A stretch of DNA of 64,000 nt, taken from positions 1-64,000 of the forward strand of contig NIVC01000992.1 of assembly GCA_002269645.1 (NCBI GenBank). The letters are read 5' to 3'. The DNA is from Macrostomum lignano (lineage: Eukaryota). The translations under genes were made by a program, and so were the position numbers. Under the pieces are notes generated by a model. The model saw only the letters and a program-made list of their open reading frames with translations, had not been told where the DNA came from and ran no database searches. Below, piece by piece: positions 44,950 through 64,000 of this stretch (the first letter of the stretch is position 1; each line of letters opens with the position of its first letter).

Positions 44950-47107
44950 CCTCACTGTGTCTGTCCTCACCTGGATTCTGTGTCTGTCCTCACCTGGATT
45001 CTGTGTCTGCCCTCACCTGGATTCTGTGTCTGTCCTCACCTGGATTCTGTGTCAGTCCTCATCTGGATTCTCCGTCTGTCCTCACCTGGATTCTGTGTCT
45101 GTCCTCACCTGGATTCTGTGTCTGCCCTCGCCTGGATTCTGTGTCTGTCCTCACCTGGATTCTGTGTCAGTCCTCATCTGGATTCTCCGTCTGTCCTCAC
45201 CTGGATTCTGTGTCTGTCCTCACCTGGATTCTGTGTCTGCCCTAATCTGGATTCTGTGTCTGTCTTCACCTGGATTCTGTGTCAGTCCTCATCTGGATTC
45301 TCCGTCTGTCCTCACCTGGATTCTGTGTCTGTCCTAATCTGGATACTGTGTCTGCCCTAATCTGGATTCAGTGTCTGTCCTAATCTGGATTCTGTGTCTG
45401 TCCTCACCTGGATTCTGTGTCTGCCCTAATCTGGATTCTGTGTCTGTCCTAATCTGGATTCTGTGTCTGTCCTCACCTGGATTCTGTGTCTGCCCTAATC
45501 TGGATTCTGTGTCTGTCCTAACCTGGATTCTGTGTCTGCCCTAATCTGGATTCTGTGTCTGTCCTCACCTGGATTCTGTGTCTGCCCTAATCTGGATTCT
45601 CTGTCTGTCCTCACCTGGATTCTGTGTCTGCCCTAATCTGGATTCTGTGTCTGCCCTAATCTGGATTCTGTGTCTGTCCTCACCTGGATTCTGTGTCTGC
45701 CCTAATCTGGATTCTGTGTCTGTCTTCACCTGGATTCTGTCTGCCCTAATCTGGATTCTGTGTCTGTCCTCACCTGGATCCTGTGTCTGCCCTAATCTGG
45801 ATTCTGTGTCTGCCCTAATCTGGATTCTGTGTCTGTCCTCACCTGGATTCAGTGTCTGCCCTAATCTGGATTCTGTGTCTGTCTTCACCTGGATTCTGCG
45901 TCTGCCCTAATCTGGATTCTGTTTCTGTCCTCACCTGCTGGATCCTGTGTCTGCCCTAATCTGGATTCTGTGTCTGTCTTCACCTGGATTCTGTGTCTGC
46001 CCTAATCTGGATTCTGTTTCTGTCCTCACCTGCTGGATCCTGTGTCTGCCCTAATCTGGATTCTGTGTCTGTCTTCACCTGGATTCTGTGTCTGCCCTAA
46101 TCTGGATTCTGTTTCTGTCCTCACCTGCTGGATCCTGTGTCTGCCCTAATCTGGATTCTGTGTCTGCCCTAATCTGGATTCTGTGTCTGTCCTCACCTGG
46201 ATTCTGTGTCTGCCCTAATCTGGATTCTGTGTCTGTCTTCACCTGGATTCTGTGTCTCTCCTTACCTGGATTCTGTGTCTGTCCTCACCTGGATTCCGTG
46301 TCTGTCCTCACCTGGATTTTGTGTCCTCAACTGGATTCTGTCTCTCCTCAACTGGATTCTTTGCCTGCCTGTCCTCACCTGCTGGATCCTGTGTCTGTCC
46401 TCAACTGGATTCTGTGTCTCTCTTCAACTGGATTCTTTGTCTCTCCTCACCTGGATTCTGTGTCTGTCCTCACCTGGATTCCGTGTCTGTCCTCACCTGG
46501 ATTCTGTGTCTGTCCTCACCTGGATTCTGTGTCTCTCCTCAACTGGATTCTGTGTCTGTCCTCACCTGGATTCTGTGTCTGTCCTCACCTGGATTCTGTG
46601 TCTGTCCTCTCCCGGAATCTGTGTCTGTCCTCAACTGGATTCTGTGTCTGTCCTCACCTGGATTCCGTGTCTGTCCTCACCTGGATTCCGTGTCTGTCCT
46701 CACCTGGATTTTGTGTCTGTCTTCACCTGGATTCTGTGTCTGTCCTCACCTGCTGGATCCTGGGTCTGTCCTCACCTGCTGGATCCTGGGTCTGTCCTCA
46801 CCTGCTGGATCCTGTGTCTGTCCTCACCTGCATGGATTCTGTGTCTGTCCTCACCTGCTGGATCCTGGGTCTGTCCTCACCTGCTGGATCCTGGGTCTGT
46901 CCTCACCTGCTGGATCCTGTGTCTGTCCTCACCTGCATGGATTCTGTGTCTGTCCTCACCTGCTGGATCCTGGGTCTGTCCTCACCTGTTGGATTCTGTG
47001 TCTGTCCTCACCTGCTGGATCCTGGGTCTGTCCTCACCTGCTGGATCCTGGGTCTGTCCTCACCTGCTGGATCCTGTGTCTGTCCTCACCTGCATGGATT
47101 CTGGGTC
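44950..47107. repeat. 23-bp minisatellite (CTCACCTGGATTCTGTGTCTGTC) with variants
   Basis: Direct reading; explains the ORFs at 44913-47196. Confidence 0.97.
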
Positions 47108-47595
47108 TGAATCTGAGTCAAAGTTTCATGTTTGTCAAAGCAAAAAACGGTGAGTTTAACATGCAGTATTTGTATACATTCAACCGGCGCCTTTAAGTAA
47201 ACTTTTTATAAGGAAAAGTTGGCACACGAGACGCCATTTACTTTGCTTGATTTACATTCTCTCGCATCTATCGCAGTCTAGCTTGTACGAGCGTATATTT
47301 GCATATTTGCATTTCAGCTAATGTTTCCATTATTTTCCAGACTGCTGACCTGCACGAATGCATCATATGTAAGCAAAATTTTATGCTCAATAAAATTCGC
47401 ACTTCACTAAGAGCAGAAGAGAAAAAAGGCAAATGCAAGTACCCAGATGCGTTTGTGCTTGAGCAAAATATTAATCTATTGCCCTGGGTAATTCCAAATG
47501 CTAAGAGTTAATATGCGGAGCGCAACCGCGAGCCTCTCGATGCAATATGCGGTATAACACTGTATGGGAGTGCAGACTTCAACCAAGTACTCATC

Positions 47596-48570
47596 AGCGC
47601 TAGATCCTACTCATCGTCGGCGCCAGATCCTACTCATTGTCGGCGCCAGATCCTACTCATCGTCGGCGCCAGATCCTACTCATCGTCGGCGCCAGATCCT
47701 ACTCATCGTCTGCGCCAGATCCTACTCATCGTCTGCGCCAGATCCTACTCATCGTCTGCGCCAGATCCTACTCATCGTCTGCGCCAGATCCTACTCATCG
47801 TCGGCGCCAGATCCTACTTATCGGCGCCAGATCCTACTCATCAGCGGCGCCAAATCCTACTTATCATCAACGCCAAATCCTACTCATTCTCGGCGCCAAA
47901 TCCTACTCATCAGCGGCGCCAAATCCTACTCTACTCATTCTTGGCGCCAAATCCTACTCATCAGCGGCGCCAAATTCTACTCATCAAGCGGCGCCAAATC
48001 CTACTCTACTCATTCTTGGCTCCAAATCCTACTCATCGGCGTTAGATCCTACTCACCAGCGCCAGATCCTACTCATCATCGACGCCAAATCCTACTCATT
48101 ATCAACGCCAAATCCTACTCATTCTTGGCGCCAAATCCTACTCATCAGCGGCGCCAAATTCTACTCATCAAGCGGCGCCAAATCCTACTCTACTCATTCT
48201 TGGCTCCAAATCCTACTCATCGGCGTTAGATCCTACTCACCAGCGCCAAATCCTACTCATCGGCTCCAAATCCTACTCATTGGCGCCAAATTCTACTCAT
48301 CAGCGGCGCCAAATCCCACTCATCAGCGGCGCCAAATACTACTCATCAGCGGCGCCAAATGCTACTCATCATCGGCGCCAAATCCTACTCTACTCATTCT
48401 TGGCGCCAAATACTACTCATCAGCGGCGCCAAATCCTACTCATCAGCGGCGCCAAATCCTACTCTACTCATTCTTGGCGCCAAATACTACTCATCAGCGG
48501 CGCCAAATGCTACTCATCATCGGCGCCAAATGCTACTCATCATCGGCGCCAAATGCTACTCATCAGCGGC
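47596..48570. repeat. 23-bp minisatellite (CGGCGCCAGATCCTACTCATCGT) with variants; homologous to the 20-bp unit at 19.5-21.9 kb
   Basis: GCGCCAGATCCTACTCATCG compared with GCGCTAGATCTACTATCG. Confidence 0.94.
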
Positions 48571-49467
48571 TTGAAACAGAAGCCACTCCGCATTTGCCAA
48601 ATTGTATTCTCTAACGCCTAGAGCTTATACAAAGATAAGCTGAATCGGCAAACACCTGTAGAGAAGCGATATCTACGAGTAACAAAAATTTTACTCTAAC
48701 TCTTGATGGTGAATAAAAGCAACACTGCGTGGCTGTTAACCCAGCCCTTACTGTGCAGAGCCTAGCAGTTATACTAATTCTATTCTTATCTTCCGCACAT
48801 ATCTCATATAATATTAAAATTCAGCCCGAGTTGGACTGACGCGCGGTAAGTAACTATTTACGAGTATAGTTTTTCTTTTTAAATTGTTCAAAGAAGCCGC
48901 CGCCAATTTTCTCTGCGCAACCCTGTATAGAAATATAAATATAAACATACACGCGGGTATTGTATAGAAAACTGTATAGCAGTGAGCTGGGGCGCCATGC
49001 ATAGTGTAACACAGCACACACACACACACACTGCACTGCTGTACAATATATACGAGCGCGTAATTATTCTAAAAAGAATCATAAATTCTACCGCTGCACA
49101 AGCGCGCTATACGAGCGTATATGCGTGCAGTTTTGAGTCGTAAAAATTTTTTTTCTCCAAATATCTAGCCTCACTTTACACCGTGTATTAACATGGCCCC
49201 GCGAGCGACTGGGCCTTGATCGGCTAGCCCTTGCTACAGTTAATTTGGAGGGTTGTTAATCTTGGCAGGAGGCTAGTCCTACATGCAGAGCGATATAGCT
49301 CTTGGTGTTTGACGGTTTTATAACTGCGCAACGCATACGCGCGTATTTATGCGCGTGTTTATGCGCTTGTGCTGGCAAGGCAAGCGCGGGTACAATGTAA
49401 GCATAAGCGTCGCCATGGATTTTATGGTGGGGGGGAATAAAATTAAGAATTCTACATGTACGTGTAC

Positions 49468-49491
49468 CATGGACAACTAGAGTTGTCCATG
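49468..49491. mobile_element. 24-bp palindromic insertion flanked by an 8-bp direct repeat (minimal hAT-like remnant)
   Basis: ACGTGTAC (49460-49467) + CATGGACAAC-TAGA-GTTGTCCATG + ACGTGTAC (49492-49499). Confidence 0.55.
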
Positions 49492-51429
49492 ACGTGTACA
49501 TGACTAATTTCATACATGTACACTATTTTCAGAATCGGTGTTGTCGTCAGCGCTCATTTTAGCGCCACAGGCACTCATTTTGGCACCGCAGGCACTCATT
49601 TTGGCCCAACAGGCTCTCATTTTGGCCCCACATGCTCTCATTTTAGATCGGAGATGCAGCTTAATACAAACTATAAAAAAATGTTGTCAACTTCATGTAA
49701 AAGGTAAAGTAATTCTGTTCATACTACTGCGTATTCAGAGTAGTATGATTTGGAATTAAACATTTAAATTTGCATCCAAAAGGCATAAATTGTGTAAAGG
49801 CATAAGTTTAAATGCAATGTTGCAATTTTATCCTATATTTATGATGCATAGTGTTTAAAGGAATTCCAACGATCGAACATGTACGCGTGGGTCTATATGC
49901 ATTATGCTGATTGATCCGCAGATTTTTCCAGGTGAGTTTATATTTCGGGTTTTCCGTCTTTTCGTTTTGGAATATAGATACATGCAGTGTGTATGCCAAC
50001 TAAAAAAAGCAATGCAGTAGTATATAGTTCCTTGCTCGGAAGGGTTAATTACCATGCAGCTGCATATGCATGTTAAAAGTACCCTAGTATACATCATTAT
50101 GCATATGTATAGAGAAGCTAACTAAGAGCGGCGCCGTCTACTCTACACAATGTCATAATGCCAAGGACCACCAGCAGTATAAAAACATACTGTGTGTATA
50201 CTCATGCTAGTGGCCTTTGCTTAGGCTGGTGGGTACCTCGTCTAAGGTGACTAACATTGGGTCCGTGTCATTGGTTTTGTATTTAAAATTCAATTCGATA
50301 AGCGGGCGCGGCCCCCCCCCCCTTTGGCCGCCCTCTGCATACGACACGATTTAGCATCCCTGTTCACAGTTACATGTACATGTACTACTAGCGCATAAGA
50401 AAAGTCCGGGTTGCTGTACGAGGTAAAGGCAGGCTTACTAGATGACTTTGATAAGTTTAGAAGCCCAAGCTTGCAAACGTAAACAGCCTGCTGATTGGTT
50501 CAGCAATAATGTACATTTACATTAGCCACTGAAATGTACCGTAACATGGCAGATTTAGGCTGGAACAACCGAGGAAGGTAATAAAAATTGGGTGGCGGGG
50601 CAGGGGTAGAGGTTCTGTGTGAAGTTTGACGGGGGGAGCGGGGGTAAAAGGCAATAAATGAGCCTTTCCCTTGTCTTTAAAAATACATTAAAATGCTTCT
50701 GTTAAACTGAAGTTACTGAACTGAAAGTAGCTTGTTGTTGTTAAACGAGAGGGTGGGTAGCCTAGGGGGCTCCCGCGGATCAGCCCAGGGAAGGGCTCTG
50801 CCGCTAGAAAACAGGGGCTTATCTACCAGGGGCATATAGCCCGAGCAGGCCAGAATGGGACCTGACGTCATGGCCAGGATAAAACTTTATTGGTGCTACT
50901 AACCCAAGCCTATGGACTAAGACACCGCCAACTCATAGGTGGAATCAGGGACGGTGCTAAGACCGAGTCCACCCAGGCCACCCCAACGACAAAACCCGAG
51001 TGTGCGCGCAAAAAAGCTTGAAGTTTAGAAAATGGTCCGAGAGCGGGGAGACCCCGAAGTCTACGGAAAAGGCTTAATTTTGGAGCGAGTCTGGGCAGCT
51101 TATTTACCAAGGGCGAGTCTCCTGCCAGATGGGCCACCAGAAAACCTCTTATTCTGCAGGGCTGCAAGCCTCAAGGCTTTTTTGCTACCGAGTCTGGAAG
51201 CTTATCCTATCAGGTAGGCGAGGCGAGTCTCCTATCAGGTAGGCCGGCGATAAGTAGAACCTCCTATATAGGGCTGCAAGCCTCAAGGCTTTTTCGATAT
51301 CCAGCTCTATATAAGGGCCAGGCCAAGGGGTCGGAGAGGGGCACAAGGAGCAAGAAGAACCCGGACTCAGCCGGTATTTCCGGTATTTCCCGATTCGGGA
51401 CGAACATCAACCCCAGGACTCCAATCCAC

Positions 51430-52907: not shown

Positions 52908-53072
52908 CAATCCACTACTGTCAGTGATGAGAGCCGAGACACAAAAAGCAGGGTCGTCTTTCCTGCAGGGTGGGTGCTAAAGTAGAAAGTAGGCAGTAGT
53001 AGGGCGAATTATGATACTGCCGCACTAGCACTGGCGAGATAGGCGGCAATGCAAATGTACAGGGAAAAATAC

Positions 53073-53410
53073 ACTGCGGAGATATGAGCCCTATCTCTGT
53101 GCATTGGGGACGGCTAAGCACTGCAGAGATATGAGCTCTATCTCTGTGCATTGGGGACGGCTAAGCACTGCAGAGATATGAGCTCTATCTCTGTGCATTG
53201 GGGACGGCTAAGCACTGCAGAGATATGAGCTCTATCTCTGTGCATTGGGGACGGCTAAGCACTGCAGAGATATGAGCTCTATCTCTGTGCATTGGGGACG
53301 GCTAAGCACTGCAGAGATATGAGCTCTATCTCTGTGCATTGGGGACGGCTAAGCACTGCAGAGATATGAGCTCTATCTCTGTGCATTGGGGACGGCTAAG
53401 CACTGCGGAG
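53073..53410. repeat. 47-bp hairpin-containing tandem repeat, about 7 copies, bracketed by a 39-bp direct repeat (53011-53049 and 53424-53462)
   Basis: GCATTGGGGA recurs at 53101 and 53148. Each unit contains CAGAGATA-TGAGCTC-TATCTCTG. Confidence 0.95.
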
Positions 53411-53754: not shown

Positions 53755-53762
53755 TATATAAG
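53755..53762 (+). promoter_or_regulatory. putative TATA box (TATATAAG) for the 53864 ORF
   Basis: Canonical TATA-type octamer about 100 bp upstream of the ATG. An identical TATATAAG lies at 51308-51315. Confidence 0.5.
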
Positions 53763-53863: not shown

Positions 53864-55123
53864 ATGAAAACTTTTAAAAGTTGTCATAGAGACCTCTATG
53901 AGGTCTGTATAAGCTGCGAAGTGTGCCTGCTTGGAGGCGTGTCCCCAAGACACCACGAGAATGAGAACTGTCTGGTCTCATGCTGGTTGGCATGCGACCA
54001 GTGCGGCACCGTCGAAGCTCTGCAGGAGGGAAAAATTCCAGCATATCATCGAGGACACAGGATCGTCAGCGATGACAAGAAAAAGCAAGAAAGTAACCGC
54101 TGGAAAGTAATCCGCGCCATCAAAAAGAGCAACGAGAGAGAAAAGAAGATCCAGCAGAAAAAGGGAGCCAGCAGGAGTCTGCTATCAGCTCACTTGAGTC
54201 AAGTAATTGACTCTACATTGAAGAGGATGAGGCCAAGCGGGTCTTCAGCAGCTGCAGAATTTGAAGTTGAGCTGTCTGCTGGAGTCGAGGCTGCTGGAGT
54301 CGAGGCTGCTGGAGTCGAGGCTGCTGGAGTCGAGGCTGCTGGAGTCGAGGCCGCTGGAGTCGAGGCTGCTGGAGTCGAGGCTGCTGGAGTCGAGGCTGCT
54401 GGAGTCGAGGCCGCTGGAGTCGAGGCTGCTGGAGTCGAGGCTGCTGGAGTCGAGGCTGCTGGAGTCGAGGCTGCTGCTGTCATAAACTTCATAGAGGAAG
54501 ATGTCCTGGATCAGTTCCTCAGGGAATTCAACGCTGGTCAGCAGCAGCAGCAACCTGTCTCTTCGGTTCCGGTGATTGCTGGAAAACAACTTCATCTAAT
54601 TGAAGACGACCACGAAATGGAAATCCTAGAAGAGGAGGGCAGCGACAATGAGTCGCATAATGCAATTGTGCCACCTGCAGCTCCAGCCGCCCCAGCTGCT
54701 CTGGCCGCCCCAGCTGCTCTGGCCGCCCCAGCTGCTCTGGCCGCCCCAGCTGCTCTGGCCGCCCCAGCTGCTCTGTCCGCCCCAGCTGCTCTGGCCGCCC
54801 CAGCTGCTCTGGCCGCCCCAGCTGCTCCAGCCGCCCCAGCTGCTCTGGCCGCCCCAGCTGCTCCAGCCGCCCCAGCTGCTCTGGCCGCCCCAGCTGCTCT
54901 GGCCGCCCCAGCTGCTCTGGCCGCCCCAGCTGCTCCAGCCGCCCCAGCTGCTCTGGCTGCCCCAGCTGCTCCAGCCGCCCCAGCTGCAGCCTCTACAATT
55001 CCAGCTTCTCAATCCGAAACTCCACCCGTGCCAGCTGGAGTTGCCTTCTTTCTGCCTCCTGTCGGCGGGGCTGGGTACGAGGTAACGATTTTCGAAAATC
55101 GTATTAGAATTGTGCCGCTGTGA
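53864..55123 (+). CDS. Polinton hypothetical protein (419 aa): Cys/His-rich N-terminus, basic segment, GVEAA and PAALAA repeats, acidic region
   Basis: ATG-initiated ORF with non-repetitive N- and C-terminal parts. CISCEVC..HH..CLVSC..CDQC..HRGH cluster. Both repeat arrays (15-bp and 18/9-bp units) preserve frame. Confidence 0.7.
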   Translation: MKTFKSCHRDLYEVCISCEVCLLGGVSPRHHENENCLVSCWLACDQCGTVEALQEGKIPAYHRGHRIVSDDKKKQESNRWKVIRAIKKSNEREKKIQQKKGASRSLLSAHLSQVIDSTLKRMRPSGSSAAAEFEVELSAGVEAAGVEAAGVEAAGVEAAGVEAAGVEAAGVEAAGVEAAGVEAAGVEAAGVEAAGVEAAGVEAAAVINFIEEDVLDQFLREFNAGQQQQQPVSSVPVIAGKQLHLIEDDHEMEILEEEGSDNESHNAIVPPAAPAAPAALAAPAALAAPAALAAPAALAAPAALSAPAALAAPAALAAPAAPAAPAALAAPAAPAAPAALAAPAALAAPAALAAPAAPAAPAALAAPAAPAAPAAASTIPASQSETPPVPAGVAFFLPPVGGAGYEVTIFENRIRIVPL

Positions 55124-56007
55124 CTAAGCAATTTTTGTACTTTTTTGCTTTCTGTGTGGAGTGAGAAATCTACCCATTTATTGCAATTATTGCTAAAACT
55201 TTATTTCAACTAGCTTTTTAAAGTTGAAAGTAGGTACATTAATTAATGATTTGATCATCTCATAACTCTGTATTCGCTTCTAGGAATCTTGCTTATAAGT
55301 TTTCAGTTTTCATTTCCAAATTAGTTTTAAAAAAAGCTCGTAGCTCGTAGTGGCAACCAATATTTTTTTGGTATCCGAGGTAAAAAAATTATTTGAAAAG
55401 TAGGTGAAACATTATACAGTTGAATTTAACAAATTAAAATCAACATAACATACTTTCAATAAATTGGTGATGGTTTCGTATGCTTGGTGCGATTGATTAG
55501 GTATAATTTTCTTTCTACTGCTTTGACGCGGTGTTTCCTCATTCTTTAATTATTGAACTTTTCAGCTATATTTCTGCTTCTAAACTCTCGTCTGTATTTT
55601 TAATTCATTGTTCCATGCATTGTTTATTGACTATGATTGCACCATGTGAATTCGATAATTTTTTAAAAAAATATATACATATAATGTCAGCATTTTTCCA
55701 CTCGGTGATTGGTTTGTTAATTAACTATTGGCTTCATTTTGCATTTTTTACCGATTGAGTCTGCGTAGGAGGCAAATAGAAACGAACTTTTACGAATAGG
55801 GATCAATAGAATATGCATGCAGAGAGCTAGCTTAAGGGAGAACCAAAAAAATATAACCAGCATCTACTAGCTTGTAAGTGTGGATATTGTACCAGTATTG
55901 CAGCAATAAAGACTTACGAAAAAGATTTCCAATATTCACTCCCAGTTGCTTATGACACTCAGTTGCAGCCAGTAAACACTGTCAGCTTTTAACTGCTTGC
56001 CTTTTCT

Positions 56008-56422
56008 ATGGTTGAGCACTCCTGGATGGAGCAGGAGAATGACCACTCATGGATGGAGAATGACCACTCATGGATGGAGAATGACCACTCATGGATGGAG
56101 AATGACCACTCATGGATGGAGAATGGCCACTCGTGGATGGAGGATGACCACTCGTGGATCGAGTATGACCACCCTTGGGTGGACCATGACGTCAGCAGCG
56201 AGTCAGCAGCCAGCAGCGAGTCGGCAGCCAGCAGCGAGTCGGCAGCCAGCAGCGAGTCGGCAGCCAGCAGCGAGTCAGCAGCCAGCAGCGAGTCAGCAGC
56301 CAGCAGCGAGTCAGCAGCCAGCAGCGAGTCAGCAGCCAGCAGCGAGTCAGCAGCCAGCAGCGAGTCAGCAGCCAGCAGCGAGTCAGCAGCCAACAGCGAG
56401 TCGGTGACTGATGCACACCAAG
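56008..56422 (+). CDS. repeat-rich exon/ORF (DHSWMEN and SSESAA repeats), possibly spliced to the PolB N-terminus
   Basis: The ORF track gives 56008-56505. A strong donor CAAG|GTAAGT lies at 56423; splicing to the CAG acceptor ending at 56654 is in frame with PolB. Confidence 0.45.
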
Positions 56423-56845
56423 GTAAGTGCCTTTATTTATCCTTTTCAACTTACTTAAAAATTTTCTTATCAATGCGATGTATATTATGCAGTCTAAAAT
56501 TTTAGTCCAAAGAATGGGAGAAGGGGAGATAAAAGACTTTATACCGGTAGGGTTGTACATGTATGCTTGGGTACAGACGTTTAGTTTAGTATCTTTGATA
56601 TTTGAAACTATAGGCAGCAAAAAACAAAAATATTATCCTAAAACCACAAACCAGGTTCAACAGTCAGCTTCAGCAGAGTTGCCCAAGCCTATGATCAATC
56701 ACTGGAAATACTGAGGCTCAGATCGAGTCACCCAGACACGCTTCCGTCAGAATTTTTTGTCCAAGCTGGAGACAAAATTATTGAGGCAGTTCAGCAAAGA
56801 ATTTCAAGACATCATTACAAAGTTCAGCTAAAGGCGAATATTCGA

Positions 56846-57376
56846 ATGGTCCGAATAAGAGATGGGGAGATGCTTGCCGAAGAGGACAGATGGATAAGCT
56901 GTAAAATGCAGGCCCTAGACCTAGGTGGTGAAGCAGGCCGTTTAAACAACTGGTTGATTGAGCAGGAGCAGGAGTTGGAGAGGATCTGTAGTATGATTAA
57001 TACGAACGGCAGTGGCTGGACAATTAAACAAATTAATTTTCTAGACATCAACCTTGCCAGGTACAATCCAATTCGATTTCGCCAGGGCAGAGCCGTTAGA
57101 TTCAATCTTCCTGCCAGTTTGAAGAACAAAAAGGCTGTTATCAATCCACCGAGCACAGGCAAAGACTGTTTCCTGTACGCCTGTCTCGCTGCACTGCACA
57201 GCGCCGATCCGAAAGTTCAGAAATCGCCCAACAGAATATCCTCTTACGATGAATGGTTGCGTGAGCTGGACTTTGCAGAAATCTCCATGCCAGTGAGTGT
57301 CGCTGATATCGATCGCGTCGAGTCTAAAATCCAGGAATTTGCATTTCTGCGTTCTCTTGGCAGCAGGGCAGTGTGA
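56846..57376 (+). CDS. N-terminal part of the Polinton DNA polymerase B (frameshifted from the main ORF)
   Basis: GSGW, KAVINP...DCFLYACLAALH and RISSY motifs are typical of the Polinton PolB N-terminus. The frame is open from 56642. Adding one A to the AAAA at 57326-57329 gives SKNPGICISAFSWQQGSVTLL and fuses to the 57373 ORF. Confidence 0.85.
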   Translation: MVRIRDGEMLAEEDRWISCKMQALDLGGEAGRLNNWLIEQEQELERICSMINTNGSGWTIKQINFLDINLARYNPIRFRQGRAVRFNLPASLKNKKAVINPPSTGKDCFLYACLAALHSADPKVQKSPNRISSYDEWLRELDFAEISMPVSVADIDRVESKIQEFAFLRSLGSRAV

Positions 57377-60303
57377 CTCTTCTCCGTCGCCGCAAGCATG
57401 AGTCAGATGACCGAAGACACCTCATGCTTTTGCTAGTTAAAGACAGCTACGGATCGGAGCACTGGTGTGCAATTACTAATTTTGACAGGTTAATGAACAG
57501 TCGTAATGGTCCCGCCATGAGGAAGTGGTGCACGAAATGTTTAACATCATTTTATAGCAACGAGAGGCTTCAAGAGCACAGGAACGAATGCAGCATTACT
57601 GCAGAAAATCCTGTCAAAGAAACGCTTCCAGTTCCAGGACAGAATGAAATAAAGTTCCGAAACTGTCAAAACACTGTCAGTCCACCATTCGTTGCCTATG
57701 CCGACCTGGAAGCCATTTTGCGAGCGAACACAGACCCTGCTAACCTGATCTCAAAGCATGAACCATGTGCAGCAGCTTTTCTTGCAGTGCCTCGTGAAGG
57801 CATGACAGGACCTCCGCTTAGGCCAGAAGGAGACATGTACAAGGTCTTTTGCAATGCGGACCCTGATGAGTGTATCCTTGGTTTTCTCAAATCTCTTGAA
57901 AGCCTGGCTCAGGATATATTTCACTGGAACCAGAAGCATAGCCACCAGCCGGCTGACCGATCATCCGCGACCGTCATGGATGATTTCAATTCTGCTGAGG
58001 TATGTCACTACTGCAAGAAGAACTTTAAAAGTTCTACAGATAAACATTTTGACCACGATCATTTAAATGGACAGTACAAAGGTGCAGCATGTCAAGAATG
58101 CAACCTGCGAGCACAGCTCCGACGCCGGTTTCTGCCCCTGGTTTTTCACAACTTAGGCGGCTACGACCTTCATCTTCTACTTTCCACTGCGCTTGGGAGC
58201 ATGAAAAATTGGAAACTTAGTGTTGTTCCGCAATCATCCGAGCGATACTTGTCACTAAGGGCGGAATTCCCTGTTGCAAGTTACGTAAAGAACGGAAAAG
58301 TTGTGCCAATCATGTTTACAATTCAGTTCATCGACTCGCTCTGCTTTTTGAAGGGAAGTTTGTCCAATTTGTTTGCTAATCTTCCCGAAGCTGAATGCAA
58401 GCTGACAATGCAAATGCTTGAGTCAAGACCACATCTTTCAAGAGAGCTACTTCGAAAAAAAGGGATTTTCCCATATGATTACCTCACAGGATTTGAGATT
58501 CTCGAGCAGTCGGTTTTGCCACCTAAAGATGCTTTTTTTAATCGACTTTCCGATAGGGGAATTTCCGACGACGACTACAATAGAGCAAGAGCGGCATGGG
58601 CGGCATTTCAATGCAAAAGTTTGAAGGATTATATGCTCGCCTATCTTGAAATGGATGTAAGGCAGCTGGCTGACATTTTCGAGACATTCCGACAGGCCAG
58701 TCTGAAAGAGGACGGATTGGATCCGGTACACTACTTTACTACTCCTGGTTTGTCTTACGACTCAGCTCTAAAGTCGACTGGAGTGGTTCTAGAGCAGCTG
58801 ACTGATGCTGACATGTATCATCTGTTTGAGAAGGGAATACGAGGAGGCATGTCCTTCATTAATGTGCATTGCGTCAAAGGTAATAATCCTAGCTTGCCAG
58901 GTTATGATGATCAGCAAGAGAGTGTAAGCCTCATGCCGATCGATATGAACAACTTGTATGGCTTTGCCCTGTCGCTTCCGCTTCCATGCAGGGAATTCAG
59001 GTGGGTACCGGAACAGGAAATCCAGTTCTGGGACTCCAATCGGTTTCTGTCACTCAATCCAGAAGCCGAGATCGCCTACCTTGTTCAACTCGATCTAGAA
59101 TACCCAGCTGAGATTCACGATTCGACTCAGGAGTTACCGTTTGCACCTGAAAAATCAAAACCACAGCCAGATCAATTCTCGCCGTACATGGCCGAACTAT
59201 GGAAAGAGATTGCTGAACAGCGAACTGGCAATGCTGAAGCTAAGTTTCAAGCAACGGAGAAGCTTCTACTCACCTGTACCGACAAGGATTCTTACGTAGT
59301 TCACAGCACCGTTTTAAGATTTTACCTGCAACACGGAATGCGGATCAAGTGCGTCAAAAAAATGATTTCGTTCAAGCAGGAAAATATTTTCGCGCCGTAC
59401 ATTGCCAGCAACAATGAAAAAAGAGCTTTGGCAACTTCCGAGTTTGCTAAGGATTTTTACAAATTGAAAAACAATTCTCTCTTTGGAAAAACTATGGAGA
59501 ACGTTCGAAAAAGATGCGATGTTCGAATTTGCACTAACCAGACTCAAGCAGAAACTTGCGCCTCTCGACCAAACTGTGCCGCATTCTCGATTATCAATGA
59601 GTCGTTGAGCATTTTTCAGCTCAAAAAAGATAAAGTCACGCTTGACAAGGCCATTTTCGTTGGCCAGGCAGTTCTCGATCTCTCTAAGATGGCCATGTAC
59701 AGCCTACTATATGACAGGCTCCGACCGCTGTTCTGTCATTCAGACGGTTCCAGAGACATGATGCTTTGCGGAGGTGATACTGACTCATTTTTTCTAGCTT
59801 TCAAGAATCATGATTTAACATCGGAGGTAATCCCGAAGCTTAGAGAGGAAAAAATACTTGACACATCCAACTATTCTCGAGACCATCCGCATTTCTCTGA
59901 AGAGTTAAAAGGAAAGCTGGGCTGCGTTAAAGATGAATCTGCTGGTGGAATTTACCAGGAGTGGATTCTTTTGCGTCCAAAACTTTATTCGTTTCTCCCT
60001 GCCGAGAATTCGAGTGCAAAGATCAAGAAAACTGCCAAAGGCGTGAAGCAGTCAGTAGTAAGACAGCAAATTTCGCATGCGAACTATGTCGACGCGTTCG
60101 AGTCCAAGCAAGAGCAGATGGTTGCCATGACAGCGATTGTTTCCAAGAAACACGAAATCTTCACGTCGGTCATGGAGAAAAGAAGCCTATCGGTGTGGGA
60201 GGATAAGCGAGTGTGGCTTAGCAGTAATCGAAGCCTGCCCTACGGACACTATGCGCTGACGCCCGCATCCCACGATCAGCTGAAGCGCATCCGACTGGTC
60301 TAG
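57373..60303 (+). CDS. protein-primed family B DNA polymerase (Polinton pPolB)
   Basis: C2H2-like CTKC..H..C. Endonuclease-VII-like CHYC..DHDHLNG.YKGAAC..CN. Exonuclease motifs YADLEA, FHNLGGYD, FIDS, KGIFPYDY and Y...DV. Polymerase motifs GIRGG, DMNNLYG, KLKNNSLFGK, DTDS and KGV. Confidence 0.97.
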   Translation: MTLLRRRKHESDDRRHLMLLLVKDSYGSEHWCAITNFDRLMNSRNGPAMRKWCTKCLTSFYSNERLQEHRNECSITAENPVKETLPVPGQNEIKFRNCQNTVSPPFVAYADLEAILRANTDPANLISKHEPCAAAFLAVPREGMTGPPLRPEGDMYKVFCNADPDECILGFLKSLESLAQDIFHWNQKHSHQPADRSSATVMDDFNSAEVCHYCKKNFKSSTDKHFDHDHLNGQYKGAACQECNLRAQLRRRFLPLVFHNLGGYDLHLLLSTALGSMKNWKLSVVPQSSERYLSLRAEFPVASYVKNGKVVPIMFTIQFIDSLCFLKGSLSNLFANLPEAECKLTMQMLESRPHLSRELLRKKGIFPYDYLTGFEILEQSVLPPKDAFFNRLSDRGISDDDYNRARAAWAAFQCKSLKDYMLAYLEMDVRQLADIFETFRQASLKEDGLDPVHYFTTPGLSYDSALKSTGVVLEQLTDADMYHLFEKGIRGGMSFINVHCVKGNNPSLPGYDDQQESVSLMPIDMNNLYGFALSLPLPCREFRWVPEQEIQFWDSNRFLSLNPEAEIAYLVQLDLEYPAEIHDSTQELPFAPEKSKPQPDQFSPYMAELWKEIAEQRTGNAEAKFQATEKLLLTCTDKDSYVVHSTVLRFYLQHGMRIKCVKKMISFKQENIFAPYIASNNEKRALATSEFAKDFYKLKNNSLFGKTMENVRKRCDVRICTNQTQAETCASRPNCAAFSIINESLSIFQLKKDKVTLDKAIFVGQAVLDLSKMAMYSLLYDRLRPLFCHSDGSRDMMLCGGDTDSFFLAFKNHDLTSEVIPKLREEKILDTSNYSRDHPHFSEELKGKLGCVKDESAGGIYQEWILLRPKLYSFLPAENSSAKIKKTAKGVKQSVVRQQISHANYVDAFESKQEQMVAMTAIVSKKHEIFTSVMEKRSLSVWEDKRVWLSSNRSLPYGHYALTPASHDQLKRIRLV

Positions 60304-60877
60304 TGCGGGTGTTTAACAGACTGTTTAGTACTTTTTCTTGCTTTTAGAGTTGTTTAAATTGCCAAATTCTGTTTTAAATGTAGTGACTTGCATGTAGTAA
60401 CTTTTACAAATTTGTATGCTTGGCTAATTGCGCTAGATTTAGCTGTCAATTTGTTTTTGCGGCGTGAAATATTGATATCAATTTAAGTTTTACTTTTTAT
60501 AAAGCTGTGGCAAGTGCGCTCATACAATATTAATTCATTTTTGTTTGCTTTGTGTACTACTTGTTTAAAATGTGTTTTTGGTTTTTATCTGACATAAATT
60601 GTTCCTGTAAATTCAATCAGCGTTTTAATCATATTTTCTCTATCACTTTTCTATTTCTCTTCTCTCGGTGCACATCGTTTGTTATAACGATGGTAGTATT
60701 GTTTACTTTCGGATTTGATATGCGTTTTGCGATACTTTTGGTGATGGGCTAAATACGTTTTTGAAGTGTTCCATAGCTGTCTACCTGGGAAAATGAATGT
60801 AAAGAATACTAAGTTTATCCTTTTATTCACTTTTCACTAATCATTGAAATATTTGCGGCAAATTGCTTGACTTGACT

Positions 60878-60889
60878 TTTATTTTTATT
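60878..60889 (-). terminator. tandem AATAAA polyadenylation signals at the end of the TBP-like gene
   Basis: The minus strand reads GAATAAAAATAAAAG, with the first AATAAA overlapping the TAA stop. A further AATAAA lies near 60820. Confidence 0.6.
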
Positions 60890-61457
60890 CAATGGAAAGA
60901 ACTACATTGAGTAGACGCATGCTATCGGTATGCAACTGATTCAAGGACCGAGCTCTACTGAGAACAAAAGAGCCGCTGTGAAAAAGCAGACATTTACAAA
61001 AGTTTAAATTGAAAATTAAAGCAGAAAAGGATTCTGGTTCATATTCGGCGTTTGGGATAATTGATTTTAACATTAATAAGGAAAGTGCGGAATGAACTGG
61101 GAGCTGTCCATGAGCAGTAATAGTTTTAATTCGAACACAAATTGTTTGATGAGGCAGCAGTTGAGCCGGCACTCTCCGATGCAGCATAGCCACGAAGCGA
61201 CGGGCAGCCCTTTTGGCGTCTGCGTGGGTCTTGGCACCGCAGATGCTCAGTTGCCCAGTAGGGTAGAGTAGCAGAGTCACTCTGGGACTTCGCATCCGCT
61301 TGATGAGCACCCGGGGCCAGACGGGCCGGTAGATCACATGAGCCATGCTGAGAGCCAGTTCCCGTAGAGGCAGCTGAGCGCCCCTGCCACCATCCAGTCT
61401 CAGATCTACTCCGCCAACCAGATTGGTCACTCTTAGGGCTGTAGCTGGTGGGCTCAT
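60885..61457 (-). CDS. TATA-box-binding-protein (TBP)-like protein encoded by the Polinton (about 190 aa from ATG 61457)
   Basis: Both TBP repeats align by eye. Repeat 1: VTNLVGGVDL..LRELAL...IYRP..VLIKRMRSPRVTLLLYPTGQLSICGAKT..AKRAARRF, versus TBP [55 protein letters not shown]. Repeat 2: YEPESFSALIF..LLFHSGSFVLSRAR, versus YEPELFPGLIY..LIFVSGKVVLTGAK. The track start at 61496 is a TTG; an in-frame stop lies at 61533-61535. Confidence 0.9.
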   Translation of the reverse strand: MSPPATALRVTNLVGGVDLRLDGGRGAQLPLRELALSMAHVIYRPVWPRVLIKRMRSPRVTLLLYPTGQLSICGAKTHADAKRAARRFVAMLHRRVPAQLLPHQTICVRIKTITAHGQLPVHSALSLLMLKSIIPNAEYEPESFSALIFNLNFCKCLLFHSGSFVLSRARSLNQLHTDSMRLLNVVLSIE

Positions 61458-61977
61458 TTCGATCGTCAACTTCTTCACCAAATCTGCTTCTGCCAACTTT
61501 ACTGCTCGTGTGCCACGGACACTGCTCGCTTCTTAAGTTGATGCAGAACTTTGGCTTAAGCCAACTGTAGTGCAGCAACGAATTTCTCACTGCACAGCCA
61601 GTATCTGAATCTTCAGTCGAGGGTGCTCCCAAATCTTCTAGGTTATAAACCTGTCTTCCAAGCAGCTCAGTCAGAAAAATCGACTTCCTTTCCCCATTTG
61701 ACCAGATCGGACCACTGGCAATGCTCAGAATGTCTTCCGCCAGTTCCATGTACGGACGGGTTCCATCATTCCACTTAAACTGGTGCAGACTCTTAGATAG
61801 CTGTCTGTAGTAAACTCGCATGTCAGGTGAGACTCTCTCCCATGGATACGGAGGTGCGTACACATGGTGAGCAATGCGGTAGCTCCCCGCTCTGATTTGA
61901 ACAACTGCCAACTCCTTCACAACAAATTTTTTGCCTGTGCTGTTGCACGGAAATCCTTGGAAGTCAATGTAGTTCAT
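61126..61977 (-). CDS. DEDD/DnaQ-like nuclease-fold protein of the type found in Polintons; homologous part about 61540-61977, C-terminal extension overlaps the TBP-like gene
   Basis: Motifs IDFQGF..FVVKELAV..H..PPYPW, HQFKWNDG..PY, NLEDLGAP and CAVRN..W. The family assignment is from motif memory. Confidence 0.6.
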   Translation of the reverse strand: MNYIDFQGFPCNSTGKKFVVKELAVVQIRAGSYRIAHHVYAPPYPWERVSPDMRVYYRQLSKSLHQFKWNDGTRPYMELAEDILSIASGPIWSNGERKSIFLTELLGRQVYNLEDLGAPSTEDSDTGCAVRNSLLHYSWLKPKFCINLRSEQCPWHTSSKVGRSRFGEEVDDRNEPTSYSPKSDQSGWRSRSETGWWQGRSAASTGTGSQHGSCDLPARLAPGAHQADAKSQSDSATLPYWATEHLRCQDPRRRQKGCPSLRGYAASESAGSTAASSNNLCSN

Positions 61978-62006: not shown

Positions 62007-62699
62007 TCAGTCCACCTTCTTATATACTTTTCTGGCAGGCAGTTTCAGCCAGGCTGTGTTGCTCCCGTACCCCTTGACTAGACTCTCCTGTTCTTTCTCC
62101 AGTTCACTCCCTCTGCTGGTTGCCATTTTCTTCTTAACTGATTTACCAATAGCGGAAAGCGGAACATTAAGCTTTTTCTGCTGCAGAAAATCGATGAACT
62201 CGTTCCACCCAACTGGTTCACGCTCACATGGCGAATCCCTCACTGCGTGCTGAATCAAGTCCAGTATGTTTGAGGAAGGGATTGACGTGCCTGCGATTTC
62301 CACCTCCCCGTTTTCACAAACTCGAATCAGCTCTGGATTGGTGGACAGGATCGTCCACAGACTGCGAGCCCTGGTTTTGAATTTCTGTGGCACCGACTTG
62401 CTGATCTTCTCTTCCCAGGTGTTCATCTGGGGTGTCTCTGTTTTCATCAACTTGGCTTCAGTATTTCGTGATCCTTCTTTTCCAGCGTGCTTGCGCTTGG
62501 CCAGCAAACTTTGCATTGCACTTTGGTACATGGCGGTTTTCACATCTTCTGGACAATCCTCGGCATACAAGATGTCATCGCATTTCTTCTGAGCCTGCTT
62601 CAAGTCAGCTTCAGTGGTAGTCTCATTTGGCTTCAAATTCTGCATCAACATCTCATACTCTGCTTTAGGAATCAGAACCATTTCTGAAAATTTGTTCAT
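62007..62699 (-). CDS. conserved Polinton hypothetical protein (230 aa)
   Basis: N-terminal MVLIP and C-terminal NGEV.I.G..IP.SNILDL...PVGW.EF...LNVP..IG pattern, as recurrently seen in animal Polintons. Confidence 0.75.
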   Translation of the reverse strand: MNKFSEMVLIPKAEYEMLMQNLKPNETTTEADLKQAQKKCDDILYAEDCPEDVKTAMYQSAMQSLLAKRKHAGKEGSRNTEAKLMKTETPQMNTWEEKISKSVPQKFKTRARSLWTILSTNPELIRVCENGEVEIAGTSIPSSNILDLIQHAVRDSPCEREPVGWNEFIDFLQQKKLNVPLSAIGKSVKKKMATSRGSELEKEQESLVKGYGSNTAWLKLPARKVYKKVD

Positions 62700-62983
62700 T
62701 TTGCTTCTTCTTCTTTACCAGCTTAAGCAGAATCGGGAGTATTTTGATGAAGCCAGCCTTCAACAAGTCTGTCTTTCTTCTTTTGTGAGTAATTTTTCGA
62801 ATTATCTCTTTTGACTTTGCAAGAACAGCTTTTTCATCGAGCGAAAACGATAGATTGTTTTGTAAGAGATTATGGCAGGCCTCGACAAGAAAATAACGCA
62901 CTTCTTTTGGACAATTTTTTATCAACAGCCGCTTGAAGCGCACGGTATATTTAGGTGACGCAAGAACCGCAAAAAACTTGCAT
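62665..62983 (-). CDS. small basic Polinton protein, possible core/pX-like protein (one-base frameshift near the start)
   Basis: The track ORF 62665-62943 starts at GTG. Removing one A from the run at 62971-62976 links it to ATG 62983, giving MQVFAVLASPKYTVRFKRLL. Lys/Arg-rich, with LVEACHNLLQNNL and a KAGFIKILPILL motif. Confidence 0.65.
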
Positions 62984-62988
62984 GTGAA

Positions 62989-63722
62989 TCAAGCACTTCC
63001 ATAGCGATGAAAACAATAGCTGATAAAAACAAGCTTCACTTTCTTAAGCAAATACAAGATGGGGTCGCTGGTTGGGCAAATTCTGGCCCGCACTCGCAGC
63101 TCATCGGGAGTTGATGGTGAAAATCCAGGAACAGGTAAGCTCCCCTGCCCTGCGCGGTCACGTGCTTGAACACTGACAGCAGAAAGCCGGGCTTCTCTGT
63201 AAAGCACTGCCTGCCCAGTGCTGCAATCTGCAGCTGGTCTCTGGGGTTTTTCAAGATAGCTAAATACATTACATTCAAGCTCATTGTTCGCGACTCTTTT
63301 CCCTTGAAAAATATATTCTGAGTCAGCATCACCAAGAAGCACGGCAAGTGATGTGCGATTCCTGTGAAAAAATTTCGCATTGAAGCAGAGTTTGAAGTTT
63401 CCTCTATTAAGTCATCGAAAACAACCAGGTCATTGGGCCTAAGTGCTGCCTCGATGTTGGTGGGAAATCCCTGGCGCAGCTGCACACCTAGGCTGCTCAG
63501 TTCTGCATGGCCTGCCTGTGAGATCCCATAGTACCACAGAACTCTGCCAGGCTTCACATCAAACATGACGTCTCTGTACTGGATCAGGTGTTTGACAAAG
63601 GTTGTTTTTCCTGCATTGGTGGGCCCGCAGACAATCATGCAGCTTCCCTGCCTGAGGCGGATATCGTAGCAAACTTGCTTTTCTCCCATGTTTAATGCAT
63701 AAATATTAGAAATCACGGACAT
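62989..63722 (-). CDS. A32/FtsK-like genome packaging ATPase (frameshift near 63116)
   Basis: Walker A GPTNAGKT, Walker B LVVFDD, then AHH, TQNIF..SRTMSLN, KNPRD and YLFLDF. The C-terminal TPDELRVRARI continues in the 62989-63342 frame. Confidence 0.93.
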
Positions 63723-64000
63723 CTTTTTCTTAAGTTGGCTTCAAACCTCTGTAAGATTCTATCATTCAAATGATTTTTTTCATTAGCATGCAAATGCTTC
63801 AAAATCCCCTCAAATGACCGATTGAACAGAAACTTTTGATAAGCAAAATAGATGCAAAACACTCCGCATTTATTAGAGTTAGCACATTGAACTCTGTTTA
63901 TATTGCTTCGGAGCCAAAAGCCAGTTGTTTTAATCTCTCGAAACAAATTATAAACCAAAGATAAAATTTCAGGTTCCCAGCCGAGGGAGTTGAACAACTC
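63713..64000 (-). CDS. adenain-like cysteine protease, C-terminal half (N-terminus beyond the window)
   Basis: FNSLG.EP (FDSYG-type motif), VQ..NSNKCGVFC.YF (catalytic Gln/Cys region) and ND..L near the end. Confidence 0.88.
   Translation of the reverse strand, partial: ELFNSLGWEPEILSLVYNLFREIKTTGFWLRSNINRVQCANSNKCGVFCIYFAYQKFLFNRSFEGILKHLHANEKNHLNDRILQRFEANLRKRCP

Follow-up and report, generated by a model that had tools for sequence, protein, structure and literature searches.

A TATA-binding protein homologue encoded by Polinton-type elements of Macrostomum lignano and a candidate promoter box that may be its target

Introduction

An earlier note on the DNA studied here, a 64,000-nucleotide stretch of the Macrostomum lignano genome (the window), had proposed that a Polinton/Maverick element in it encodes its own TATA-binding protein (TBP). 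Is this gene a genuine TBP belonging to the element, and if so, which promoters might it serve? Viral TBP mimics are known, and TBPs also occur in mirusvirus-like elements (PMC10675990). The note knew of no TBP among Polinton genes, which holds in part: the label 'TBP' is already in print, in the legend to Fig. 5 of Starrett et al. 2021 (PMC8502044), where a section on non-animal datasets deals with viruses and elements whose PolB is adintovirus-like, but no description, selection test or promoter model of a Polinton TBP was found in the openly accessible full texts searched.

Results and Discussion

The element and its genes

The TBP gene lies within the inverted ends of a Polinton/adintovirus of 16,512 bp, which starts at window position 52,995, ends beyond the window at contig position 69,506, and has AGTAGT ends and inverted repeats. 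Its features are as follows.

52,989-52,994, plus strand: target-site duplication GTAGGC, 6 bp, with a second copy past the right end
52,995-53,370, plus strand: left terminal inverted repeat, beginning with AGTAGT and containing internal repeats of 47 nt
53,755-53,762, plus strand: canonical TATA box TATATAAG upstream of ORF1
53,864-55,123, plus strand: ORF1, 419 aa, with a Cys-rich start and repeats, of no clear family
56,846-60,303, plus strand: protein-primed PolB, in two ORFs in the window copy (56,846-57,376 and 57,424-60,303)
60,822-60,889, minus strand: three AATAAA signals 3' of the TBP gene (60,889-84, 60,883-78 and 60,827-22)
60,885-61,457, minus strand: TBP homologue, 190 aa, two lobes, core domain only
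61,090-61,130: seam of recombination separating the two TBP lobes (roughly codons 110-122), at the point where the overlapping ORF ends
61,126-61,977, minus strand: nuclease-like gene (DEDD/Maelstrom-like lead, score 0.87) with a low-complexity tail
61,530-61,537, minus strand: candidate late box CTTAAGAA, 78-80 nt upstream of the TBP start, within the nuclease-like ORF
62,007-62,699, minus strand: conserved hypothetical protein, 230 aa, with no Pfam match and no conserved upstream box
62,017-62,026, minus strand: TATATAAGAA, a canonical TATA and the variant box combined, 45 nt upstream of the nuclease-like gene
62,692-63,002, minus strand: small basic protein gene, broken in the window copy, 105 aa in lineage A2
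63,036-63,722, minus strand: A32-like packaging ATPase, its 3' part out of register in the window copy
63,041-63,048, minus strand: box CTTAAGAA, 44 nt upstream of the small basic gene
63,713-64,000, minus strand: adenain-like protease, 3' part, running past the window end
63,727-63,734, minus strand: box CTTAAGAA, 43 nt upstream of the ATPase
Past the window: major capsid (interrupted here), basic core, minor capsid, integrase, PC4-like gene and the right inverted end at 69,506

In this element family (family A), ORF1 and PolB occupy one strand. The other strand carries, in order, the PC4-like gene, integrase, probable minor capsid, basic core, probable major capsid, protease, ATPase, small basic protein, 230-aa protein, nuclease-like gene and TBP. 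Our reading of the ORFs and Pfam matches thus agrees with the gene order and the convergence with PolB described earlier, and the AATAAA signals attributed to the TBP gene are likewise there. Pfam recovered pPolB (E 1e-12), the rve integrase (2e-13), the C5 protease (1e-4) and, weakly, the A32 ATPase (0.034; P-loop present). ORFs of 427 and 269 aa at the places expected for capsid proteins have no Pfam match; the labels core, minor capsid and major capsid are putative and follow from size, position and the Polinton layout rather than from a profile match. The terminal inverted repeats, the 6-bp duplication and the set of pPolB, integrase, ATPase and protease identify a Polinton/Maverick/adintovirus, which has its size, ends and gene set in common with those described (PMC8502044; Barreat and Katzourakis 2021, PMC8097293). 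The interruptions in the window copy, in PolB, the major capsid gene, the ATPase end and the small basic gene, may be decay or assembly errors. No RNA polymerase gene is found among the element ORFs, and the small basic protein had no usable match in the Atlas.

Several observations concern neighbouring sequence. The host DNA at window positions 1-48,000 consists mostly of tandem repeats (49 direct-repeat families, units 8-148 nt). PolB contains an endonuclease VII-like zinc domain (57,990-58,110; Pfam 8e-6), present in other lineages too. Spliced 5' exons are possible for PolB: upstream of it, a repeat-rich ORF (56,008-56,850) terminates in a donor-like GTAAGT, and a single CTTAAG occurs at 55,831.

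A two-lobed TBP

The 190-aa product matches the Pfam TBP family (PF00352) in two stretches, one for each half of TBP as had been claimed, with an E-value of 2e-24 and 85.6 bits against a curated cut-off of 22.9; the TBP of a second element family (family B, below) scores 68.4 bits. Sequence matches in the PDB were TBP chains in 35 of 36 cases, the best being archaeal (2e-14) and human (5e-13). An AlphaFold model built on a 33-row alignment reached a pLDDT of 95 and superimposed in Foldseek at a best TM of 0.82-0.84. Against human TBP the predicted structure gave a Z-score of 20.0 (VIA) and an rmsd of 2.1 over 175 residues, the next unrelated fold reaching a Z of 7.9. This fold match is not independent of the sequence match, because the alignment given to AlphaFold included ordinary TBPs. 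Taken together, the gene encodes a genuine element-borne, two-lobed TBP with the saddle fold. It is 29% identical to host TBP; host TBP is about 88% identical to human TBP over the core.

The nuclease-like ORF, in another frame, overlaps the first 332 nt of the TBP gene, that is, lobe 1. Its frame stays open for 110 codons through lobe 1 (61,126-61,457) in lineages A1, A2 and A3 and in family B. The sequence of the Ser-rich overlap tail drifts while the frame is kept open, for which codon shuffling gave chance probabilities of 0.006-0.012 each in A1, A2 and B, values that are not independent of one another.

Copies, selection and origin

A genome search with the TBP returned at least 152 matches (150 of 232 candidates scored), and in all at least 168 distinct TBP places were found, as expected of a multi-copy, mobile element. 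The best 97 matches share 74-100% identity over 165 residues or more, and 95 of these 97 are free of stops; the 30 nearest copies differ by a mean of 1.2 nt in 573. Family B is 38-39% identical to family A; most of its TBP is covered by 26 matches with identities of 83% or above. Host TBP and TRF2 are each present three times, so redundancy in the assembly may have raised the copy numbers; the cores of these host genes (L045-L050) are intronless, each in one open frame and in three near-identical copies.

Whether homologues are always flanked by element genes had been put forward as a check; at 48 of 48 element loci examined, the window being one, the nuclease-like gene adjoins TBP. Family B keeps the block from integrase to TBP, with PolB at the opposite end and the PC4-like gene facing TBP. 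A TBP lies 1.2-4 kb downstream of 122 of 137 listed ATPase places, the other 15 having no listed TBP and several of them lying at contig ends; conversely, at least 122 of 168 TBP places have an ATPase among the matches listed. At two places, G000:C2301 near 62,000-65,000 and G000:C3189 near 47,000-50,300, ATPase matches on opposite strands face one another around half a TBP gene, which we regard as fold-back copies or assembly artefacts.

Among eight family-A lineages, pN was below pS in 56 of 56 lobe comparisons. Omega was 0-0.30 for lobe 1 (28 pairs) and 0.06-0.32 for lobe 2 (15 unsaturated pairs; 13 more were saturated). Three young family-B copies carry few changes, with no silent-site bias (two pairs: 6 non-silent, 6 silent). 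A rapid 69-row tree joined families A and B and six unplaced environmental proteins into a single group (SH-aLRT 93, unstarred), to which P0109 and P0135 were sisters. A clade of the element group with host TBP was rejected (AU p 0.018), while long branches blur the deeper placement. Host TRF2 grouped with P0012, away from the element TBPs, and its residue pattern differs, which does not place the element protein in the TRF2/TLF class. From the sequence comparisons we conclude that the element TBP is a fixed gene of two families under purifying selection and not a recent host copy, in line with the earlier view of an old, element-adapted gene.

The position of P0002-4, P0009, P0015, P0163, P0170, P0109 and P0135 in the tree suggests that they, too, are element-borne. 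Nine further environmental TBPs (P0013, P0021, P0034, P0053, P0064, P0067, P0090, P0092 and P0117) are short (170-195 aa) and long-branched and may belong to other mobile elements. Viral contigs searched for relatives with DNA context outside this genome returned only the metagenome locus L058, which was dropped as a spurious 35-residue match.

The DNA and TFIIB faces

Eleven rows of the element-TBP clade were compared in yeast numbering. N69, V71, T112, L114, F190, F207, E186 and E188 are kept in all 11, as in cellular TBP, with which the fold is shared. Eight positions are changed in all 11: F116 to Y, V122 to S/T, T124 to C, Q158 to K, N159 to T, V161 to T/S, P191 to S/T/N and V203 to K. 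The same surface changes across families that are only 38% identical point to a new specificity rather than to decay.

The note had placed aromatic residues at all four DNA-intercalating positions. Three are kept (Y65, F144 and F159, corresponding to yeast F116, F190 and F207), but in three alignments family A has Pro48, and family B another non-aromatic residue, in the column of yeast F99. W47 precedes this column by one residue, at a place where family B lacks an aromatic; W47 might take the role of F99 if the loop were shifted by one residue. The element TBP therefore lacks the full canonical set of four intercalating Phe and two central Asn. The alignments bear out what was described for the lobe-1 Asn, the acidic YEPE stirrup and the lost lobe-2 Asn (KTIT); the basic helix is kept in family A and only partially in family B. 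Two environmental TBPs, P0067 and P0090, likewise have Thr in place of N159 and V161.

Lobe 2 of TBP reads the 5' half of the box, P191 restricts box position 1, and V122 lies near position 6; such links of single residues to single base positions reportedly go back to structure work by Patikoglou in 1999. Most of the compared positions appear in the DNA-contact list of PMC12529657 (Table 1), in which ORF24 of KSHV also has polar residues at V122, T124 and V161. A Phe-to-Tyr change at the loop-5 position influences TATA binding (PMC7221094), and we take F116/F207 to be this position.

Two stirrup glutamates contact TFIIB (PMC7221094), and by sequence both, E186 and E188, are present in 11 of 11 rows. 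No TFIIB was found on contigs with an element TBP: the 15 PF00382 matches fall on 7 contigs, none of them a listed element-TBP contig. The element ORFs gave no Pfam match to TFIIB either, in a profile search that a very diverged TFIIB could escape.

A candidate promoter box

In an unbiased k-mer scan of the windows upstream of ten block genes in lineage A1, CTTAAG ranked first, with 8 of 8 occurrences in the windows (p 4e-7 before correction for some thousands of words). The related word TAAGAA occurs 9 times in sense and 0 times in antisense in A1, against 2.4 and 1.5 in shuffles, and 6 and 0 times in B, against 1.3 and 1.1; in A2 the counts are 7 and 0. A2 has about 73% nucleotide identity, and family B gives no blastn match. 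Boxes lie within 150-10 nt of the start in 8 of 9 cases in A1, 6 of 7 in A2 and 7 of 7 in the held-out family B (p 2e-5), with hand-picked start sites and a window widened from 120 to 150 after the core-gene box had been seen.

The distance from box to start spans 10 to 147 nt and is similar between A1, A2 and B for the core (147/147/138), major capsid (108/102/103), ATPase (43/56/65), small basic (44/50/33) and nuclease-like genes (45/56/51). A pyrimidine stands two bases upstream of the box in 21 of 21 cases, giving YWTAAGAA, though the 21 boxes are not independent because they are orthologous between lineages. The TATA consensus is TATAWAWR, with which YWTAAGAA aligns with a G at position 6. 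The box occurs once upstream of most virion and packaging genes in the three lineages, and it does so in two reading frames. Most boxes fall in Lys/Arg-rich coding tails, where the residues alone would give the motif with a probability of 0.02-0.29 each; one family-B box forms a stop codon and one box is non-coding.

At the TBP gene itself, all 30 of the nearest copies carry the box CTTAAGAA, as do lineages A2 and A3; in family B a canonical TATAAAAG takes its place. The combined TATATAAGAA stands upstream of the nuclease-like gene in 28 of 29 copies, and the genes adjoining the inverted ends have a canonical TATATAA. No box was found before the protease or the 230-aa gene in any lineage, and lineage A2 has no canonical TATA before its nuclease-like or TBP gene. 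Two CTTAAGC words, before the 230-aa gene and 103 nt before TBP, were discarded since they are not kept in A2 and A3. The TATATAAG boxes, which had been suggested as targets of the element TBP, are canonical and precede the inverted-end genes and the nuclease-like gene; the candidate target is YWTAAGAA instead. Over the whole window neither sequence is enriched: CTTAAGAA was found 3 times with 4.3 expected, its signal being one of position and strand only, and the count of TATATAAG is not above that in shuffles.

Under the same automatic pipeline, 39 of 54 YWTAAGAA sites at 10 element loci lay upstream of ORFs, compared with 5 of 72, near chance, at 18 IMG/VR loci with a related PolB and no TBP match; these control loci are partial, belong to other hosts and have a higher A+T content. 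One of the TBP-less loci without the box, L065, carries the nuclease-like gene and an apparent capsid block.

A possible late-gene switch and its alternatives

We somewhat favour a reading in which the element TBP acts as a late-gene switch of altered specificity that uses host TFIIB and Pol II, in the manner of herpesvirus ORF24. Host TBP would start the genes with canonical TATA boxes, namely ORF1 or PolB and the PC4-like gene next to the inverted ends, the nuclease-like gene of lineages A1 and A3, and the TBP gene in family B. The element TBP would then bind YWTAAGAA, a TATA variant with positions 1-2 relaxed and position 6 fixed as G, through its rewired, more polar DNA face, and the kept acidic stirrup would draw in host TFIIB and Pol II at the genes for integrase, capsid, core, ATPase, the small basic protein and the nuclease-like protein. 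Positive feedback would come, in family A, from the box before TBP's own gene. Early and late are here assigned from gene type, and the priming of lineage A2 is not accounted for, because no canonical TATA precedes its nuclease-like or TBP gene. In coral, capsid genes cluster in expression apart from PolB, ATPase and integrase, with no factor named in that account (PMC11131425). The note's suggestion that the protein directs Pol II to element promoters with altered specificity receives indirect support from a candidate cognate box.

Alternatively, the box might be a real late-promoter element whose reader is host TBP/TFIID or a different element protein (the 230-aa, small basic or PC4-like protein), with the element TBP as a cofactor or a general, unregulated stand-in. 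Boxes of the TATAAGAA type are only one base off a canonical TATA, PDB 1QN5 is, by its title, wild-type TBP bound to a G(-26) TATA variant, and the element encodes other conserved proteins without an assigned role, besides the PC4-like protein of both families. We nevertheless consider this unlikely, since it leaves the conserved non-canonical DNA face (11 of 11 rows) unexplained and the box is absent from TBP-less relatives, including L065 with its nuclease-like gene and apparent capsid block.

Retention of both TFIIB-contact glutamates alongside the loss of one aromatic and the lobe-2 Asn would also fit a decoy, a protein that has given up DNA binding and soaks up host TFIIB (or TFIIA, Mot1 or NC2), damping host transcription or defence. 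Invariant DNA-face positions across families 38% identical would not be expected of an unused surface, however, and a matching box exists, which makes a decoy rather improbable.

The motif might instead be an initiator-like start, a splice acceptor or a by-product of basic protein tails, with the TBP acting elsewhere, perhaps in replication at the inverted ends or with Pol III. Late TAAG of baculoviruses is an initiator-like start site; the core of the box is TAAG, most boxes encode Lys/Arg, and two family-B boxes lie 7-10 nt before the ATG. If transcription starts about 28 nt downstream of the box, the ATG of the gene, or one in frame with it, comes first in 17 of 21 cases, compared with 14 of 21 if it starts in the box, a weak margin over an initiator. 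One box is non-coding, most lack a preceding pyrimidine tract, and the element ORFs include no RNA polymerase gene. We judge this account improbable.

A captured host TBP pseudogene carried neutrally, to which one might ascribe the broken neighbouring genes and a departure of the window copy from its sisters at a near-invariant column (position 168, in a column at least 90% invariant in alignment A1, separates the window copy and five more of the 30 nearest from the remaining 24), is scarcely credible and is refuted for the family by purifying selection, by the 95 of 97 best matches without a stop, and by the 29% identity to host TBP with rejection of a host-TBP clade (p 0.018), even though single copies may be dead.

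Relation to known systems

The closest parallel to the favoured switch is ORF24 of KSHV, a vTBP of beta/gammaherpesviruses with the late box TATTWAA (PMC12529657). The two systems share the lack of an own RNA polymerase, canonical promoters for early and a TATA variant for late genes, and a TBP fold with polar residues at V122, T124 and V161; in the element this promoter pattern is present in the sequence, before genes of early and late type. ORF24 has 752 aa, binds Pol II directly, belongs to a six-protein complex and is modelled as TFIIB-incompatible (a section title of PMC12529657). The element TBP, in contrast, is a bare 190-aa core that keeps the TFIIB glutamates, has lost N159 and F99, and is recognizable by sequence. 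It is not the large multi-domain protein with five partner activators that characterizes herpesvirus vTBP/vTA, although it may function in a comparable way.

The TBPs of Nucleocytoviricota are likewise diverged two-lobe viral TBPs (Ravarani et al. 2020, PMC7221094), and giant-virus TBPs appear among the BFVD fold matches at 6-20% identity. Most of these viruses also encode TFIIB, their acidic contact is about 40% conserved, and 90% have Phe at L5.1 (PMC7221094), whereas the element TBP keeps both glutamates, has Tyr at L5.1 of lobe 1, and comes with no TFIIB that we found in the element. Host TRF2 has lost three of the aromatics; the element TBP keeps three.

Unlike Polintons as described, the elements studied here have a TBP fixed in two animal families, together with a PC4-like gene and a candidate box. 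Viral TBP mimics and the printed label were known before; the matched box is new, and together with the TFIIB contact kept where no element TFIIB was found and the swapping of lobes it makes the proposal directly testable. If it is true, a virus-like late switch would be an argument for an infection cycle of Polintons. Variants and lobe chimeras of TBP, a highly constrained protein, would show which residues set TATA specificity, and a TBP of changed preference that fits host TFIIB could serve as an orthogonal core-promoter tool.

The PC4/Sub1-like protein occurs in both element families with a canonical TATA box upstream (L031:4628-5401 and L033:6077-6718, both minus strand; Pfam 5e-8 in family A and 6e-5 in family B), and in family B its gene and PolB have a common promoter sequence through the inverted ends. 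No mention of PC4 was found in the Polinton literature checked for it; the protein may be a Pol II cofactor or simply a single-strand binding protein of replication. The family-B integrase has a candidate GT-AG intron of 112 nt in its 5' part (L057:6628-6739), directly after which similarity to the family-A integrase begins; vertebrate Mavericks are reported to be intronless (PMC8097293).

Recombination between TBP lobes

Measured per 100 nt over the virion block and TBP lobe 1, loci L039-L042 mostly share 91-100% identity with the window. Near 61,100 the identity falls, and silent sites in lobe 2 are near saturation. The PolBs of these lineages are only 51-55% identical to that of the window (L039 lacks a neighbouring PolB). 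In two public runs, contigs branch at 61,106 and 61,108 into the sequences of L039 and of L040/L051-56, so a single faulty assembly does not account for the lobe chimeras. Because it coincides with the end of the overlapping nuclease-like ORF, the seam does not necessarily bear on lobe function. Exchange between PolB and virion modules is known in Polintons (PMC8502044; 10.1101/2023.08.22.554363) and is found here as well.

A more specific version of the switch, which we put forward tentatively, would be a minimal, one-protein promoter switch in a 16-kb animal Polinton, an early-to-late programme run with neither a viral polymerase nor a viral TFIIB. Lobe 1, which stays with the box-bearing virion module, would read the fixed AGAA half of the box, and lobe 2, swapped with the PolB module, would read the relaxed half, giving natural chimeric TBPs. 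If so, Polintons would amount to a natural library of orthogonal TBP-promoter pairs.

Contigs from four runs cover the element evenly, intergenic parts included, and have no splice joints, and are therefore uninformative on transcription. A second seam lies near the 3' end of the ATPase gene, where L044 compared with window positions 63,100-63,200 is 92-100% identical upstream and 66-93% identical downstream.
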